From UHGV virus genome UHGV-1443735: 32,176 bases of DNA, one strand, 5' to 3'. The stretch is from a virus. The position numbers and the translations under genes were made by a program. Shown here one piece after another: positions 5,120 to 24,765 of the stretch. Position 1 is the stretch's first letter. Each line of letters starts with the position of its first letter. The notes below the pieces were generated by a model, which saw only the letters and a list, made by a program, of their open reading frames with translations, was not told the DNA's origin and did no database searches.

Positions 5120-6088
5120 TTAGTAGGTTATTTTTGTTGCGAATACTTCGCCTTTTACGATGGCTGTTATGATATTTTTAGCAACATCTTCTGATGCGCC
5201 AACCTTGATAAGGTCAGCAAGTATTTTGTTATTTACTTCTTTCCGGTGAGCTTTATCCTTTGCTCTACACTCTTCTTCTTCCTTGATTCTTTTTTCTTCT
5301 GCTATTCTGGCTTGCTCTTTTGCTTCAGCCTCGCGCCGGATTCGTTCAGCCTCCTCCTGTGCTTTTCGGCGTTCTGCTTCAATTGCCGCCTGCTTTTCTC
5401 TTTCAGCTCGTTCTGCTGCCTCTTTTGCTTCGCGCTGTGCTCGTTGCTCGGCTTCAATGCGTTCACGCTCTGCACGTTCCGCTGCGGCCTTAGCTTCTGC
5501 TTCTCGCCTTGCTGCTGCTTCAATTTCGGCTTTTGCCTTTGCTTCGGCTTCTGCTCTGGCTTTCTCTTCAGCTTCTCTTTTTAAGCGTTCTTCATGCTCT
5601 CGCTTTTCCTGCTCCGCTTTGAGTCTTGCCTCTTCTCTTTGGCGGTCAAATTCGCGATCCATCAAAATAGCTATTTCATGGTCAGACTCAATTTGCTTTG
5701 CGAGAGCTTCAGCTGCTGCCTTAGCTTCTTCTTCGGCTTTAATCCGTGCCTGTTCCTCCTCATAATCAGTAAGAGGCTGGCGTGCCTTGGATTTCAGCTC
5801 ATCAAGGCGATCACGCACTGTCTTGCGGTTGGCATCAATTAGCTTTGGAATTTCCTTCAGTTCAGCAACAAGGTCTTTTCCAAGACCATCGAGATATGTT
5901 TTCGTCTGCGCAACTTTATACGCCAGAGAAGCGATCTCCTTTCTGCCCTTTGCCGTTGTGATATCAGGCACAAAGGACATAACTTCACGTTCAACCTTTT
6001 GAAGGATTTCTTCAATCTGGTCGGCAGACTGAAATACAGTCATTGCATTTGCTTTTTCAATAACAACTAAATCTGTTACTTCACTCAT
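5120..6088 (-). CDS. coiled-coil protein with TolA-like E/A/K/R-rich repeat region (about 322 aa)
   Basis: Start refined to ATG at 6088 with GGAGG at 5-nt spacing. The central ~130 residues are low-complexity charged repeats (AEAKAKAEIEAAARREAEAK...); N- and C-terminal regions are non-repetitive. Confidence 0.7.
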   Translation of the reverse strand: MSEVTDLVVIEKANAMTVFQSADQIEEILQKVEREVMSFVPDITTAKGRKEIASLAYKVAQTKTYLDGLGKDLVAELKEIPKLIDANRKTVRDRLDELKSKARQPLTDYEEEQARIKAEEEAKAAAEALAKQIESDHEIAILMDREFDRQREEARLKAEQEKREHEERLKREAEEKARAEAEAKAKAEIEAAARREAEAKAAAERAERERIEAEQRAQREAKEAAERAEREKQAAIEAERRKAQEEAERIRREAEAKEQARIAEEKRIKEEEECRAKDKAHRKEVNNKILADLIKVGASEDVAKNIITAIVKGEVFATKITY

Positions 6089-6100
6089 ATATCCTCCATC

Positions 6101-6127
6101 AAAAAAATCGCCCTCACATCGGAGGGC
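6101..6127 (-). terminator. rho-independent terminator (minus strand)
   Basis: 6-bp stem GCCCTC/GAGGGC with 6-nt loop, followed on the minus strand by a run of 7 T, immediately upstream of the RBS of the 5120-6088 gene. Confidence 0.6.
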
Positions 6128-6222
6128 AAAGAAGATTTCCAATAATCAGAACAAGTCGGCTCCTGTTTAGTTACGAGCGACATTGCTCCGTGTATTCACT
6201 CGTTGGAATGAATACACAGTGC

Positions 6223-6411
6223 TTATTCGTCATGCATTTCAGGTAATTCTTCGTATTCGACTCCCCATACGAGTTTACACCAAGTGACTCGCTCATATCT
6301 TTTACAAAAATCAGACCACATAACTTGTGTTCCATCATGGTTTGTTATTACTTCTGTAATATCACCAACACTAACAAAACTGGTATTAGAAGCAGTTATT
6401 TTTACTTTCAT
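6223..6411 (-). CDS. small hypothetical protein (62 aa)
   Basis: ORF whose start overlaps the upstream gene's stop (TAATG). Confidence 0.5.
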   Translation of the reverse strand: MKVKITASNTSFVSVGDITEVITNHDGTQVMWSDFCKRYERVTWCKLVWGVEYEELPEMHDE

Positions 6412-6698
6412 TACTTATCCCCAAGAGCTTTTCTGATTGCTGCAAGACCTTTATTAACAGCTTCATACCATTCTGGATATGTTGTCGTTGTTCTATTTTT
6501 GGATTGCTTAAGTAATAACTGAAGTGCTTCGAGAAGGTCAGGTGCTGCCGCTATCAGTAGCGCATCCTCCCTTTCATTTCTTGTTGCTGCTTCAATGTAT
6601 GTGTCACCAATCGTCACACCATGGAACGTAGTCATCATCTCGTTGACGTTTCTAACCGTGTACTTCCATTTACCAGGCGTACCCTTAAACTCTTTCAT
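6411..6698 (-). CDS. hypothetical protein (about 95 aa)
   Basis: Start refined to ATG at 6698 (the ORF-track start at 6704 is a GTG) with GAGGTG RBS. Confidence 0.55.
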   Translation of the reverse strand: MKEFKGTPGKWKYTVRNVNEMMTTFHGVTIGDTYIEAATRNEREDALLIAAAPDLLEALQLLLKQSKNRTTTTYPEWYEAVNKGLAAIRKALGDK

Positions 6699-6715
6699 AT
6701 TCACCTCTGTTGTTT

Positions 6716-6746
6716 ATGCCCAAAATAAAGGCCGACTATGCGGCCT
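6716..6746 (-). terminator. terminator-like hairpin (minus strand), copy A of a repeated intergenic element
   Basis: Stem AGGCCG/CGGCCT with 6-nt loop followed by TTTATTTTG on the minus strand; lies between the membrane-protein gene and the next gene. Confidence 0.45.
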
Positions 6747-6750
6747 GAAA

Positions 6751-7200
6751 TTACTTAACCAATGATGCTGCATATTCGATAAGGTAAAGCTTTGGGGCCA
6801 GCCAAATTTTTAACCAAGTCATATTGGTTACTACACCAATAATAAAAATCCCCCACAGAGTCAAAACTACAACCAATGGCATGATAAGAAGATTAATATC
6901 ACCTTTGCTATCCCAAACCATTGTCGGCCTGTATTTGGGATTTCCTTTCTCCCATGAATATCCTTCATCACCGATTTTACCTGTCTCAACTCTTTGGCAC
7001 TGCTTCTTCATAAACCAGAAAACCAGTGGGATTGTTAGAATGGCCATTAATGTTTTAATCAGACTGTCAACCATATTCCATAGCAGCAACTGATGAACAA
7101 CATCAGGAATCTGTGCCTGGCTAAATGAAACAGCCGCGTCTATTCCATTACTGGCTTTTTGCAGTAGTTCTACGAGAATCTTGTTTGCTTGTTCTTCCAT
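6751..7200 (-). CDS. membrane protein with two predicted TM segments (149 aa), possible superinfection-exclusion-type function
   Basis: Two hydrophobic stretches (LMAILTIPLVFWF and LLIMPLVVVLTLWGIFIIGVV); ATG at 7200 with GAGGTG RBS. It sits where lambda and P22 carry sieB; functional call is by position only. Confidence 0.6.
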   Translation of the reverse strand: MEEQANKILVELLQKASNGIDAAVSFSQAQIPDVVHQLLLWNMVDSLIKTLMAILTIPLVFWFMKKQCQRVETGKIGDEGYSWEKGNPKYRPTMVWDSKGDINLLIMPLVVVLTLWGIFIIGVVTNMTWLKIWLAPKLYLIEYAASLVK

Positions 7201-7247
7201 ATCTCACCTCAAATAATTCAGTGCAGTGTTTATTCTGTTGTTTATGC

Positions 7248-7271
7248 CAAAAGAAGGCCGACTATGCGGCA
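7248..7271 (-). terminator. weak terminator-like hairpin (minus strand), copy B of the repeated intergenic element
   Basis: About 36 of 38 nt identical to the element at 6708-6746; shorter stem (GCCG/CGGC) and T-rich tail CTTCTTTTGG. Confidence 0.3.
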
Positions 7272-7280
7272 TAATTATTT

Positions 7281-7469
7281 TTAACTATCATCAATACATG
7301 GCACTTTATTCCAGTCGATATCGTTTTTATTGTCGTCCCACATGTCTTTGTTTTTGTATTTCTCGCTACATCCTAGGCAAATGTTGTATGGCCTACCGAT
7401 AAGGTTTAACGAAATACGTTGCATTTCATTTGATTCAAACATGTATCCACAGAACTGACATTTATGCAT
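7281..7469 (-). CDS. small zinc-ribbon protein (62 aa; CxxC...CxxC)
   Basis: MHKCQFCGY...NICLGCSEKY carries two CxxC pairs; ATG at 7469 preceded by a GAGGGGTG RBS. Confidence 0.55.
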   Translation of the reverse strand: MHKCQFCGYMFESNEMQRISLNLIGRPYNICLGCSEKYKNKDMWDDNKNDIDWNKVPCIDDS

Positions 7470-7472
7470 ATC

Positions 7473-7609
7473 TCACCCCTCATACAGTAGCTTACTGCCT
7501 AATTTCATTTTCTGGCGACCAACACAAGTCACACCCATTTCACTGCGTGGCTTGCGGTAGCTCTACGAGAATCTTGTTTGCTTGTTCTTCCATATATCAC
7601 CTCAAATAA
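7473..7609 (-). pseudogene. recombination scar: 5-prime fragment of the membrane-protein gene fused to a 3-prime fragment of an N-like gene
   Basis: 7560-7609 is a near-identical copy (about 50 bp, including 34 identical nt) of 7167-7216, i.e. the RBS plus the first 12 codons of the 6751-7200 gene. 7528-7555 is 28 nt identical to 7849-7876 inside N, and the frame continues as KPRSEMGVTCVGRQKMKLGSKLLYEG*, an N-type C-terminus. Confidence 0.6.
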
Positions 7610-7647
7610 GTGGTTTGCTGCGAAAGTAAATACGCTTAAGTTACCTG

Positions 7648-7785
7648 TTATTTATCCCACCAAGTTCCGTATCTATCTATCCAGTTACACCAATCATCGA
7701 CACTCCATTTTGTTGTGTCGCATTTTGGCAACTGGCATGAATATCTACCTTCTTTGTAAAGTCGGCGTTTGACTTTCTTGAGCAT
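7648..7785 (-). CDS. small Cys-containing hypothetical protein (45 aa)
   Basis: Found by manual translation (MLKKVKRRLYKEGRYSCQLPKCDTTKWSVDDWCNWIDRYGTWWDK). ATG lies 8 nt after the N stop with a GAGGTGAG RBS; below the ORF-track cutoff. Confidence 0.3.
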   Translation of the reverse strand: MLKKVKRRLYKEGRYSCQLPKCDTTKWSVDDWCNWIDRYGTWWDK

Positions 7786-7793
7786 GGCTCACC

Positions 7794-8126
7794 TCAATCG
7801 TAATAAGCTGGAATTGATTTTCCGCGTTGCTTCTGGCGGCCTGAGCATGTCACACCCATTTCACTGCGTGGCTTGCTGTACCATGTGCGATGATTCTTGC
7901 GCTCAACAGCTTCAGCGCGTTTTTCCATCTCTTCCCGATACTCAGCCAGCACCGTTAAATCAATCGGGTTCAGAGCGCTTTCTACGCGTGATTTAGGCTT
8001 TCGAGTCAGCGAGAGAATTTTGCGGGTGTCTGGCTTGGCGCTTACCCCAACTAACAGGGGGTTTGCTGCTTTCCATTGAGCCTGTTTCTCTGCGCGACGT
8101 TCGCGGCGGCGTGTTTGTGCATCCAT
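7794..8126 (-). CDS. N: antitermination protein N, lambda type (110 aa)
   Basis: N-terminus MDAQTRRRERRAEKQAQWKAANPLLVGVSAKP matches lambda N (arginine-rich boxB-binding motif); RBS CAGGAGAATCCAG-ATG; nutL lies upstream. Confidence 0.92.
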   Translation of the reverse strand: MDAQTRRRERRAEKQAQWKAANPLLVGVSAKPDTRKILSLTRKPKSRVESALNPIDLTVLAEYREEMEKRAEAVERKNHRTWYSKPRSEMGVTCSGRQKQRGKSIPAYYD

Positions 8127-8394
8127 CTGGATTCTCCTGTCAGTTAGCTTTGGTGGTGTGGTGGCTGGTAGTCTAGCTCCAGCTTGTTGAGTCTCATTCG
8201 GAGGGGTATAACCGGCACCCCAGTGATTTTTCCATGCGACAACGTGCGCGTTATGGCGGCCTTATCGCCCGCGGCTCCCCATCTCGTCCACGCTATTGCT
8301 AGCGTTGGGAGCGCTTCACCGCTCAACAGTAGGTAAGCACTTGCCAGTGACTAGCTGGCTTCACCACACCCCAAAGCCTTCTGCTTTGAATGCT

Positions 8395-8614: not shown

Positions 8615-9256
8615 TCAGGAGAATTTCATCATCATCTGCACTGCTACGCCGATTATCTTGCAGTTGCCGTCGATTGGGATCAACGGATAGGCAGGGTTAA
8701 GCCCTTTCAGGTATTTGTTACCGCCATCAATGATTAGCTTCTTGAACGTGGCTTCATTAGCATCTGTCAGCTTCGCAACTACCAGGCTTCCATTAACGGC
8801 TTCCTTTCCAGTGTCGAACAGAACCAGCATACCCTCAGGAACGCTAAGGCCGGTAGGAGCTGTCATTGAGTCGCCCTGAACCCTGAGCCAGAAGGCGTCA
8901 CCGACAACGTGACAATCTGATTCATACCACTCATCCACTGCCTGAGGGTTGTACGGCTCTACGGCCTCACTCCATGCACCTGCGCTAACCCAGCTAATCA
9001 ACGGAAACTTTTCCCCTGGCTTGTATTGTCCCTGATAGTTGTCGCCAAAAAGCAGTTCTGCCGGAGCGACGCCCAAAGCTTTAGCTATTACCTCTGCGTC
9101 ATCAACACTAACGCTTCTGGTTCCTGATTCATAGTTGCCGATCCGAGATTGTGAAGCCCAGCCGCAAAGCTCCGCCAGCGCCTTCTGTGAAAGCCCTTTA
9201 TCTTCCCGTAATCGCTTGATACGCGCGGCGATAGTTTCTGTTCTGTTCATGCGCAT
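8615..9256 (-). CDS. cI: CI/C2-family prophage repressor (HTH_XRE N-terminal domain, S24 LexA-like C-terminal domain)
   Basis: HTH LSQKALAELCGWASQSRIGNYE, then a C-terminal domain (PLISWVSAGAW...VQGDSMTAP...LVVAKL...) with the Ser/Lys dyad, very similar to P22 C2. No RBS before the ATGs at 9256/9250, consistent with a leaderless pRM transcript. Confidence 0.9.
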   Translation of the reverse strand: MRMNRTETIAARIKRLREDKGLSQKALAELCGWASQSRIGNYESGTRSVSVDDAEVIAKALGVAPAELLFGDNYQGQYKPGEKFPLISWVSAGAWSEAVEPYNPQAVDEWYESDCHVVGDAFWLRVQGDSMTAPTGLSVPEGMLVLFDTGKEAVNGSLVVAKLTDANEATFKKLIIDGGNKYLKGLNPAYPLIPIDGNCKIIGVAVQMMMKFS

Positions 9257-10811: not shown

Positions 10812-10822
10812 AGGTGGACAAA

Positions 10823-11710
10823 ATGGCACGTTCAAGAAATATCAAACCAGGCTTTTTCACCAATGATGAATTAGCTGAGTGTTCTCCATATGCCCGTCTC
10901 CTTTTTGCCGGGTTATGGACTATTGCTGACAAAGAAGGGCGGTTGGATGATCGCCCAAAGAAAATTAAAGCAATGGTACTGCCTTTCGATGATGTGGACT
11001 GCAATGATCTGCTTCAGCAACTTCACAGTCACAAATTCATCAATCGATATCAGGTAAATGGCGGCTCATATATCCAAATCAATAACTGGAAAAAGCACCA
11101 GAACCCTCACTGCAAAGAAGCGGCCAGTGAGATACCAGAACCAGTAGAGAATAATAACAGCATCCTGCAAGTACAGTGCAAGGACGATAAAGAGGAAGAG
11201 AAGGAGGATACAGAATCACTTCAAGTCATTGAAAACAATGAAGCACCAGAAAAGCACCATGCAAGTACAGTGCAAGAACAAGTTGAGAACAGTTTAAATC
11301 CTGCTGATTCCCTTAACCTGATTCCTGATTCCCTTAACCTGATTCCTGATTCCCTTTCTAACACCCAAGCCGCTGACGCGACTTGTGAAGGGGGTGGGGC
11401 TGATGTCCATAAAATTTCAAGTCGCTATGCATTCGAAGGAAATATCGTTCGGTTAAACCACAAGGATTACGAAGCATGGAAGCGCCTGTATCCGAACATT
11501 GACCTGAATTACGAGCTGGAAAGGCTGGATATCGAATTTAGCCATGAGAAGCCAAAGAACTGGTTTATCACTGCCAGCCAGAAACTCAGCTACCAGAACA
11601 AGCAGGCGTTATCCAGACCGGTACGCAAGGTTGCTAATGGACTTAAGGCTGAAAACTTTGCCACCAAGGATTACGGACAAACTGAAATGCCTTCATGGGC
11701 GCAGGAGTGA
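10823..11710 (+). CDS. replication initiation protein, O-like, with internal iterons (about 295 aa)
   Basis: Position after cII and before the DnaC-like loader; internal direct repeats encode SLNLIPDSLNLIPDSL. Start refined to ATG at 10823 (AAGGTGGA RBS); the ORF-track start at 10814 is a GTG. Confidence 0.7.
   Translation: MARSRNIKPGFFTNDELAECSPYARLLFAGLWTIADKEGRLDDRPKKIKAMVLPFDDVDCNDLLQQLHSHKFINRYQVNGGSYIQINNWKKHQNPHCKEAASEIPEPVENNNSILQVQCKDDKEEEKEDTESLQVIENNEAPEKHHASTVQEQVENSLNPADSLNLIPDSLNLIPDSLSNTQAADATCEGGGADVHKISSRYAFEGNIVRLNHKDYEAWKRLYPNIDLNYELERLDIEFSHEKPKNWFITASQKLSYQNKQALSRPVRKVANGLKAENFATKDYGQTEMPSWAQE
11304..11355 (+). repeat. putative origin iterons inside the O-like gene (CTGATTCC... 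repeated 5 times)
   Basis: Direct repeats CTGATTCCCTTAAC / CTGATTC in tandem within the initiator gene, as with the lambda ori iterons inside O. Confidence 0.6.
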
Positions 11711-23871: not shown

Positions 23872-24765
23872 ATGGACCAGATGGCAGAAAACACACCAGA
23901 AGTTGAAATCGAACCCGACGCGTCAGAGCAGATTCCTGATGATGTCGAACTGGCTGAAGAAGTCGAAAAAGCAGATGGCAGTGAGTCCTCAGGAAATGAT
24001 GCAGAGGAAGCTACTGACACTGATGACGACGAATCAGAACAGGAATTCTACTTTGGTGACGAAAAGCTGGATTCGCCAACCAGCGAAGATGGCGCAGAGC
24101 ATGGACTGGTAAAACACCTGCGCAAGACGATTAAAGAGAAAGACCGCGAGCTGAAAGAGCTGATGCGTCAGTCTCAGAAACCCGTCGAGCAGCAGCCGGT
24201 AATCACTCAACCACCGCGAATGCCAAAACTGGATGATGAGGACATCGGTTTCGATGAAGAAATCTACCAGCAACGCATGGCTAAGTGGGCAGAGGATAAC
24301 GGCAAGTACCAGCAACAGGAGATGGCTCGCAAGCAGAAGGAGCAGGAGCTTCAGGCTGCCTATCAAGAGCGATTATCCAAATATCAGCAACGTGTTAAGG
24401 CTCTCAAAGTTCCTGGCTATCAGGAAGCTGAGCAGGCCGTACTCGAGGAAATCCCCATCGAGACACAAAACGCGATCCTGTTTGAGTCAGAGAAGCCGGA
24501 AATCGTTGTTCTGGCACTCGGTCGCAACGCTGAACTGCGCAAGCAACTGGCAGAAGCTACCAACCCCGTAGCAATTGGTCGTCTGCTGGAACGTATCGAA
24601 TCGAAGGCCAGAATCATGCCAAAAGCAAAAACCACGGCAGCCACAACCCCGACAGTTAAGGGGAGCAACGGCGCAGTAATCAACAACCTCGACAAATTGA
24701 AAGCCAAGGCGCTGGAAACTGGTGACTGGACGCCGTATTTCGCCGCTAAAAAGGCAAAAAAATAA
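23872..24765 (+). CDS. scaffolding protein (P22 gp8-like) (297 aa)
   Basis: Acidic N-terminus, coiled-coil middle and basic C-terminus (...KAKALETGDWTPYFAAKKAKK); located between portal and coat. Confidence 0.8.
   Translation: MDQMAENTPEVEIEPDASEQIPDDVELAEEVEKADGSESSGNDAEEATDTDDDESEQEFYFGDEKLDSPTSEDGAEHGLVKHLRKTIKEKDRELKELMRQSQKPVEQQPVITQPPRMPKLDDEDIGFDEEIYQQRMAKWAEDNGKYQQQEMARKQKEQELQAAYQERLSKYQQRVKALKVPGYQEAEQAVLEEIPIETQNAILFESEKPEIVVLALGRNAELRKQLAEATNPVAIGRLLERIESKARIMPKAKTTAATTPTVKGSNGAVINNLDKLKAKALETGDWTPYFAAKKAKK

Follow-up and report, generated by a model that had tools for sequence, protein, structure and literature searches.

Why should the same short sequence stand twice, ahead of successive genes, in a single early operon? 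The question is raised by a 32,176-nucleotide (nt) stretch of viral DNA, UHGV virus genome UHGV-1443735 (the whole of which is here called the window), which holds the immunity and early-left region of a P22-like/lambdoid coliphage, with the early-left genes on the minus strand. An earlier note on this DNA had described an element of roughly 38 bp that occurs twice in the operon of the promoter pL, each time just in front of a gene in the direction of transcription and each time as a GC hairpin followed by a T-rich tract, and had read the two occurrences as terminators or attenuators passed with the help of N, between genes that had arrived as cassettes. The element is in fact a widespread module and not a local duplication. 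Read on the minus strand, which is the strand of the pL transcript, the module is a hairpin followed by UUUAUUUUUGG and CAUAAACAACAGA. The explanation that we favor, with moderate confidence, is that the two copies are instances of a widespread junction of about 43 nt between cistrons of pL operons, which would serve as a recombination linker; copy 1 would in addition be a terminator or attenuator, and copy 2 an inert relic.

The similarity between the two copies is clear-cut. A global alignment of copy 1 (6706-6746) with copy 2 (7234-7272), both on the minus strand, gives identity in 37 of 41 columns with two 1-nt gaps, both of which fall in the A/T run. On the plus strand, the copies share in register an exact 15-mer, TCTGTTGTTTATGCC (6706-6720 and 7234-7248), and an exact 17-mer, AAGGCCGACTATGCGGC (6728-6744 and 7254-7270). 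The repeat is confirmed; the start coordinates given earlier for the two copies were 1-2 nt off. In 30 shuffled windows the longest exact repeat was 13-16 nt and never more than 16 nt, and the 15-mer GGCCGACTATGCGGC has exactly two occurrences in the 32 kb. Chance similarity of the two copies is therefore excluded.

The two copies differ in what they can fold into. Both are located on the pL strand downstream of stop codons, the position expected of an intrinsic terminator. For its shape we asked for a G+C-rich stem of at least five pairs, a loop of 3-8 nt and a U-rich tract immediately after the stem, all of which are found in copy 1 but not in copy 2. The hairpin of copy 1, AGGCCG-CAUAGU-CGGCCU (6746-6729), has a 6-bp stem with five G-C pairs, a 6-nt loop and the U-rich tail UUAUUUUGGG directly after it (6728-6719); its folding energy is −9.7 kcal/mol, the terminator scan picks it up, and it corresponds to the “G-type” module of other phages described below. 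Copy 1 starts 5 nt past the stop codon (6751-6753) of a gene for a 149-amino-acid (aa) predicted membrane protein, and its leader CAUAAACAACAGA (6718-6706) merges into the ribosome-binding site (RBS) CAGAGGTG (6709-6702) of a 95-aa open reading frame (ORF) with its ATG at 6698. It is the first minus-strand terminator-like site downstream of the N gene, and the terminator tL2a comes about 600 nt further on. Copy 2 starts 10 nt past the stop codon (7281-7283) of orf62, and its end is 23 nt ahead of the RBS (7210-7203) of the 149-aa ORF. Its hairpin region reads AUGCCG-CAUAGU-CGGCCU. Because the 5′ arm is AUGCCG, only 4 bp can pair, GCCG (7270-7267) with CGGC (7260-7257), at about −5 kcal/mol; the minimum free energy (MFE) structure is a different one, and the terminator scan makes no call. 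Copy 2 carries the U-tract variant UUCUUUU (7255-7249) and the leader GGCAUAAACAACAGA (7248-7234). Hence, of the hairpins with T-rich tracts reported earlier, the one in copy 1 stands and the one in copy 2 does not. The placement in front of genes is right for the short leader but not for the hairpin, which forms the 3′ end of the upstream gene and in five gene families elsewhere contains the stop codon in its loop. Of the whole module, only the short leader should be assigned to the downstream gene.

The earlier note had pointed to other lambdoid pL operons as a place to look for the element, and it is abundant there. A 46-nt query matched 216 of 50,697 phage records, which include Escherichia, Stx-converting, Shigella and Salmonella phages and one Klebsiella phage, and exact-word scans found the module in more than 150 loci of the viral contigs in IMG/VR. 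There were two such scans, each returning at least 120 stretches; the loci were fetched by words inside the module, so the sample is biased and the counts are biased lower bounds. The module is not annotated as a feature in any of 40 sampled rows of the 216 phage records. Among 158 instances from 155 loci, two hairpin types, “G” and “R”, are joined to the same U-tract and leader. Type G (AGGCCG-CAUAGU-CGGCCU) has a median folding energy of −9.7 kcal/mol, and type R (AAGGCUGCC-UGAU-GGUGGCCUU), at −13.9 kcal/mol, follows ral or, as in VT2-Sakai, an 83-aa gene. In total, 100 of the 158 instances fold at −8 kcal/mol or better. The module always has the orientation of the pL transcript, with a stop codon either 0-21 nt upstream or inside the loop. 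The proteins encoded upstream are of 11 families and those encoded downstream of 15; together they make 50 combinations, and two of the families were found both before and after a module.

The best-known relatives of the window also have the module in one form or another. Sf6 has one copy after gene 34, a homolog of the 149-aa gene, directly adjoining the annotated bsq4 and tL2A. In lambda, a related sequence follows right after the ral stop codon (...GCUGCC UGA UAGUGGCC UUUAUUUUUGG CAUAAAUAACAGAAUAAACACUGCACUG..., at about 34,044-34,090), just upstream of the small RNA (sRNA) PreS and of tL2a, and has a weakened stem (−4.3 kcal/mol); no other module match was found in lambda between 31,000 and 36,000. 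HK620 is without the hairpin and U-tract part. We further noticed that five unrelated upstream families end in (K/E)-A-A-stop, their reading frames entering the hairpin and stopping in its loop (AAG GCC GCA UAG in type G and AAG GCU GCC UGA in type R; e.g., VT2-Sakai locus L127, 1150-1230). The differences between the 5′ arms of types G and R are synonymous in the frame of these genes.

Pairwise comparison of instances from different contexts reveals where homology ends. On one side the breaks cluster where the hairpin starts, at its 5′ edge (17 nt), and on the other side inside the leader, at 13 or 28 nt; in 1943 of the 3916 context pairs, both breaks fall within 60 nt. The clustered breakpoints therefore define an island of about 43 nt. 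Furthermore, the U-tract variants UUCUUUU and UUUAUUUUU sort independently of both flanks, so that crossovers have taken place inside the module as well as at its edges. These results show that crossovers have occurred at both kinds of site, and that the module is an island of homology between otherwise unrelated flanking genes, where cassettes are exchanged. Exact matches in it run for 15-28 bp, inside a nearly identical stretch of about 43 bp; the minimal identity reported is 23-27 bp for Red-beta versus 31-34 bp for RecA (PMC3945230).

There is strong support for the idea that the genes in between came in as cassettes, as the module is also found between many unrelated genes elsewhere among lambdoid phages. 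In Louie and mEp213, N is directly followed by orf62 and by a module with the same shortened arm as copy 2, and the sequences downstream differ: the canonical PreS block comes next in Louie, the 95-aa ORF in mEp213 and the 149-aa gene in the window. The join between module and 95-aa ORF in mEp213 is the same as that at copy 1, and the family of the 149-aa gene is found with the module on either side in other loci. The window thus has two copies because cassettes (orf62; the 149-aa gene; the 95-aa and 62-aa ORFs) have been stacked by recombination between N and the PreS/tL2a segment. A recombination scar between N and orf62 (Table 1) duplicates 7159-7216 and 7831-7880 and yields a 17-codon remnant ORF, which is consistent with a single illegitimate crossover between an “N-orf45-gene34” phage and an “N-orf62-module-gene34” phage. 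The mosaic of the window is not present in the collections searched, since coverage of 6000-8200 by any phage record is 51% at most, and coverage of 6150-7800 by any complete E. coli genome is 66% at most. The closest sequenced phage is Louie, with 40% coverage of the first 25 kb. We also noticed the hexamer GCACTG (transcript strand) at 7222-7227 and at 6217-6222, that is, at both ends of a block of about 1 kb that comprises the 149-aa gene, copy 1 and the 95-aa and 62-aa ORFs; the canonical uninterrupted junction reads ...CACUGCACUG^UGUAUUC.... The pair of hexamers could be microhomology at an old insertion joint.

We then considered what the module might do in the transcript. In the explanation that we favor, the module consists of a small GC hairpin at the 3′ end of an accessory gene, the U-tract UUUAUUUUUGG and the A/C-rich leader CAUAAACAACAGA, which runs into the RBS of the next gene or into the PreS-tL2a block. 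Phage recombinases of the Red/RecT/Erf type could use identity as short as this, which would make the module a recombination linker. Copy 1 would also act as a weak-to-moderate Rho-independent terminator or attenuator that limits N-independent transcription and is read through by N-modified polymerase. Copy 2, with its arm cut to 4 pairs, would be a relic, largely inert but still a source of homology and of a leader. A terminator function of copy 1 is plausible on its predicted fold, and to read it as an N-readthrough terminator or attenuator is reasonable, as this would fit its shape, its position, its orientation and the lambda-type N and nutL upstream; copy 2 is unlikely to be a terminator. 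The joining of two hairpin types to one and the same U-tract also counts in favor of this explanation. It is established for lambda that N-modified RNA polymerase passes intrinsic terminators. Given this, and since a lambda-type N gene and nutL are present in the window, N-modified polymerase should read through copy 1. The sieB/tL1 segment that comes after N in lambda and HK620 is absent from the window, and therefore no tL1 equivalent precedes the module copies.

The evidence against a selected terminator is nonetheless substantial. The copy 1 hairpin is short, and its folding energy is ordinary in comparison with shuffled sequences (z = −1.56; 15 of 200 fold as well), and terminator-like patterns are not enriched in the region (8 versus 5.5 ± 2.6 expected). 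Neither the G nor the R hairpin shows compensatory covariation, with no pair changed on both sides, and most single-site variants in the stems break pairs. Pairing is kept in about 90% of the stem cells, a share not above that of shuffles, the sequences being too closely related for this comparison to have power. The comparison among relatives lends no support to an N-readthrough terminator or attenuator at copy 1. Fifty of the 158 instances are weaker than −5 kcal/mol, among them that of lambda, and the terminators annotated in NC_001416, Sf6 and HK620 do not include the lambda counterpart. The nucleotide diversity of the module (about 0.05-0.06, in a biased sample) does not fall below the value for the homologous genes at its flanks, so that extra purifying selection is unsupported. 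On the same comparison, and with the same bias in sampling, we rejected the possibility that the module is more strongly conserved than its flanks.

These observations also bear on the possibility that the module is a hitchhiker without function, namely an ancient 3′ untranslated tail, from ral or from genes like gene 34, that has been kept by kinship among the phages. Its duplication would then reflect recombination history alone, with no termination or RNA role, and it could still provide homology passively. Stem variants that mostly break pairs without covariation, hairpins that are weak in about one third of the instances (including lambda), a diversity no lower than that of the flanks, and the persistence of the shortened arm in copy 2, Louie and mEp213 would all be expected of such a tail. 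However, both hairpin types keep a stable stem that abuts the same U-tract, the module never departs from the pL orientation or from its place 0-21 nt from a stop codon, and the 100 instances at −8 kcal/mol or better would be hard to reconcile with it. We regard the hitchhiker as unlikely, although it is the alternative that survives best.

A role in RNA processing was suggested by the neighborhood of PreS. PreS (LPR1) is an Hfq-dependent sRNA of lambda, located between ral and ea10 and produced during the lytic cycle, that ends at tL2a, is processed from 88 nt to 68 nt and activates dnaN (bioRxiv 10.1101/2024.10.31.621285). Next to the module, on its downstream side, most phages have a strong 17-bp hairpin and then a block ending at tL2a, which is near-identical in lambda, Sf6, Louie and the window (6222-6100); in the window, about 1 kb of cassettes parts the module from this block. 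The canonical module is in the same intergenic region of lambda as PreS, where it fills the space from the ral stop codon to the PreS block, but it is outside the 88-nt RNA, and in the window the PreS-like sequence (~6100-6188) lies about 520 and 1050 nt downstream of the two copies. This position rules out the module as a part of the PreS sRNA. The 17-bp hairpin (6222-6185) has a folding energy of −21.7 kcal/mol (z = −6.4) and is located at the expected 5′ end of the 88-nt RNA; going by the predicted fold, it could be a processing site.

The module itself might then be an element of RNA processing or stability, in which the hairpin would shield the upstream cistron at its 3′ end and the AU-rich stretch would be an entry site for RNase E that segments the pL polycistron and, in the canonical context, helps to free the PreS precursor. 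The distance of the canonical module from the expected 5′ end of the 88-nt PreS (about 30-80 nt upstream) agrees with this, as do the appearance of PreS only in the lytic cycle together with a processed 68-nt form, and the stretch after the hairpin, which is AU-rich and predicted to be unpaired. On the other hand, the module is also found 12 nt from start codons without any sRNA nearby, as at copy 1, and termination is the simpler explanation for a U-tract right behind the stem. An element of this kind is rather improbable.

A more ambitious version of the linker, of which we are quite doubtful, is that the module has been selected as a portable “cassette linker”, which would give any gene joined upstream its stop codon, in the loop, and any gene joined downstream its leader or RBS, and would combine these with a terminator that is leaky and sensitive to translation and with about 43 bp of homology tuned to the Red/Erf annealing proteins of phages. 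If true, it would be a recombinase-free analogue of the integron attachment site and would let accessory genes swap as ready-to-express units in the hypervariable pL region.

Within the 149-aa ORF, we found an inverted partial copy of the 3′ arm and U-tract of the module, matching at 18 of 21 nt, which none of 100 shuffles equals. The MFE structure predicted for 6712-6950 pairs this inverted copy with copy 1, replacing the terminator hairpin. The inverted copy is conserved in 13 other loci, with no informative variation or covariation, and is absent from a 140-aa variant of the gene. Its location in coding sequence, its absence from the 140-aa variant and the lack of covariation led us to reject it as a conserved antiterminator and as a terminal repeat resembling that of a miniature inverted-repeat transposable element. 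We consider it very improbable that the module is a translation-sensitive attenuator, in which ribosomes stopping at or just before the hairpin would block the stem, read-through would depend on translation of the previous cassette, and long-range pairing with the inverted copy would likewise block the stem of copy 1: stop codons inside the loop for five unrelated upstream families, all ending in (K/E)AA-stop, the stop 5 nt before the stem of copy 1 and the inverted match used by the MFE structure are in its favor, but the inverted copy is missing from the 140-aa variant and shows no covariation in the 13 loci, pairing over 178 nt within a translated ORF is kinetically unlikely, and the shared KAA-stop endings fit recombination joints just upstream of the hairpin equally well.

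Returning to the junction module as we favor it, we compared it with systems already described. The N-suppressed terminators of lambda (tL1, tL2a-d and tL3) resemble it in operon, in strand and in having a small GC stem-loop with a U-run, but it is homologous to none of them, and its lambda counterpart, directly after ral, is unannotated. The possibility that the module is tL2a or another named lambda terminator was ruled out, as tL2a is present separately in the window (6108-6129). A known RNA family was likewise rejected: in the whole window, Rfam 15 gave no covariance-model hit at the gathering score, only sub-threshold terminator-like hits (RyhB, with 16.9 bits against a gathering score of 55).

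The description of boundary sequences in lambdoid phages is reportedly owed to the HK620 and Sf6 genome papers of Clark et al. in 2001 and Casjens et al. in 2004. Like the boundary sequences of Sf6 (bsq, AF547987), the module is a short conserved non-coding joint between non-homologous lambdoid segments; it has unrelated flanks on both sides, as is evident from the 11 by 15 families in 50 combinations and from the breakpoints at its edges. It is not itself an annotated bsq, since bsq4 of Sf6 (annotated at 24156-24268) ends where the module begins, and it differs from the bsq in being delimited to about 43 nt, in having two hairpin types and in the 50 combinations of its flanks.

Morons are said to be promoter-gene-terminator insertions in lambdoid phages, a description ascribed to Juhala et al. 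in 2000. The cassettes are similar to morons in that accessory genes are inserted between genes that are adjacent in relatives, each being followed by a terminator-like hairpin, as the orders N-orf62-module-PreS in Louie, N-orf62-module-orf95 in mEp213 and gene 34-module-PreS in Sf6 demonstrate. They differ in having no promoter of their own. On the minus strand between 4500 and 9500, the consensus scan found pL as the only promoter-like site and none ahead of the cassettes, and inspection of the module by eye on both strands found no convincing −35/−10 pair. The lack of a promoter-like site before the cassettes on the transcript strand indicates that they are members of the pL operon, read within it, and not classical morons with their own promoters. 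The closest parallel in a P22-like phage is phage L, in which operons read from one promoter contain predicted Rho-independent terminators. According to its genome paper, intra-operon terminators are frequent in the P22-like group and have no known role; partial termination, or a block of transcription that is not antiterminated, is suggested (PMC8022706). Theirs is a general observation, and no specific repeated module or recombination role is described (PMC8022706). By mechanism, then, the module resembles the N-suppressible terminators of lambda, and by evolutionary role the boundary sequences of Sf6. It is a sharply defined addition to both, not a new mechanism.

Table 1. Features of the immunity and early-left region, by descending position in the window
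Feature	Position	Strand	Remarks
cro	9361	+	
cI-like repressor gene	8615-9256		
pL	8493-8465	-	Promoter consensus scan
nutL boxB GCCCUGAAGAAGGGC	8409-8395	-	Lambda-type; boxA also present
Lambda-type N antiterminator gene	7794-8126	-	Downstream of pL and nutL
DUF5484 gene, 45 aa (PF17583)	7648-7785	-	Similar to Sf6 gene 36; immediately after N
Recombination scar	7510-7609	-	Start of the 149-aa gene (RBS and first 12 codons) joined to a 3′ piece of N
orf62, 62-aa CxxC...CxxC protein (phrog_19863)	7281-7469	-	3′ end carries copy 2
Copy 2 of the module	7234-7272	-	Shortened 5′ arm; folding; uncalled by terminator scan
149-aa predicted membrane protein gene (phrog_3054)	6751-7200	-	Homolog of Sf6 gene 34; copy 2 upstream, copy 1 downstream
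Inverted partial copy of the module 3′ arm and U-tract	6919-6939	+	18/21 nt; inside the 149-aa ORF
Copy 1 of the module	6706-6746	-	Hairpin, U-tract and leader; folding, terminator scan and alignment
95-aa ORF (phrog_1273)	6411-6698	-	RBS fused to the copy 1 leader; same join in mEp213
62-aa ORF (phrog_10407)	6223-6411	-	Last inserted gene before the conserved PreS/tL2a block
Conserved PreS/tL2a block	6100-6222	-	Corresponds to Sf6 “bsq4”; 17-bp hairpin, PreS/LPR1-like sRNA sequence and tL2a
tL2a terminator	6129-6108	-	−12.9 kcal/mol

The ORFs of the cassettes all match PHROG families, to which no function is assigned there, and are therefore real phage genes. Elsewhere in the window, a 298-aa ORF on the plus strand (10814-11710) contains a perfect 21-bp tandem repeat, CTGATTCCCTTAACCTGATTC, in 2.5 copies (11304-11356) and a separate 17-nt direct repeat (11166-11182 and 11260-11276). 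These repeats are probably replication-origin iterons within a replication gene.

It is an old question whether the mosaicism of lambdoid phages arises through homologous exchange at short conserved “linkers” or through random joins filtered by selection. The module is a feature of an ordinary kind, though a clean example of it: it illustrates the linker route in a compact and countable form, with about 43 nt, at least 50 gene pairings and crossovers visible inside. It is situated in a region of accessory genes (ral, the membrane protein gene and others), beside the newly described sRNA PreS. For annotation, it is a conserved non-coding element that is unmarked in current phage records. It also provides a defined substrate for recombination crosses and for gauging the effects of intra-operon terminators on N-dependent expression.

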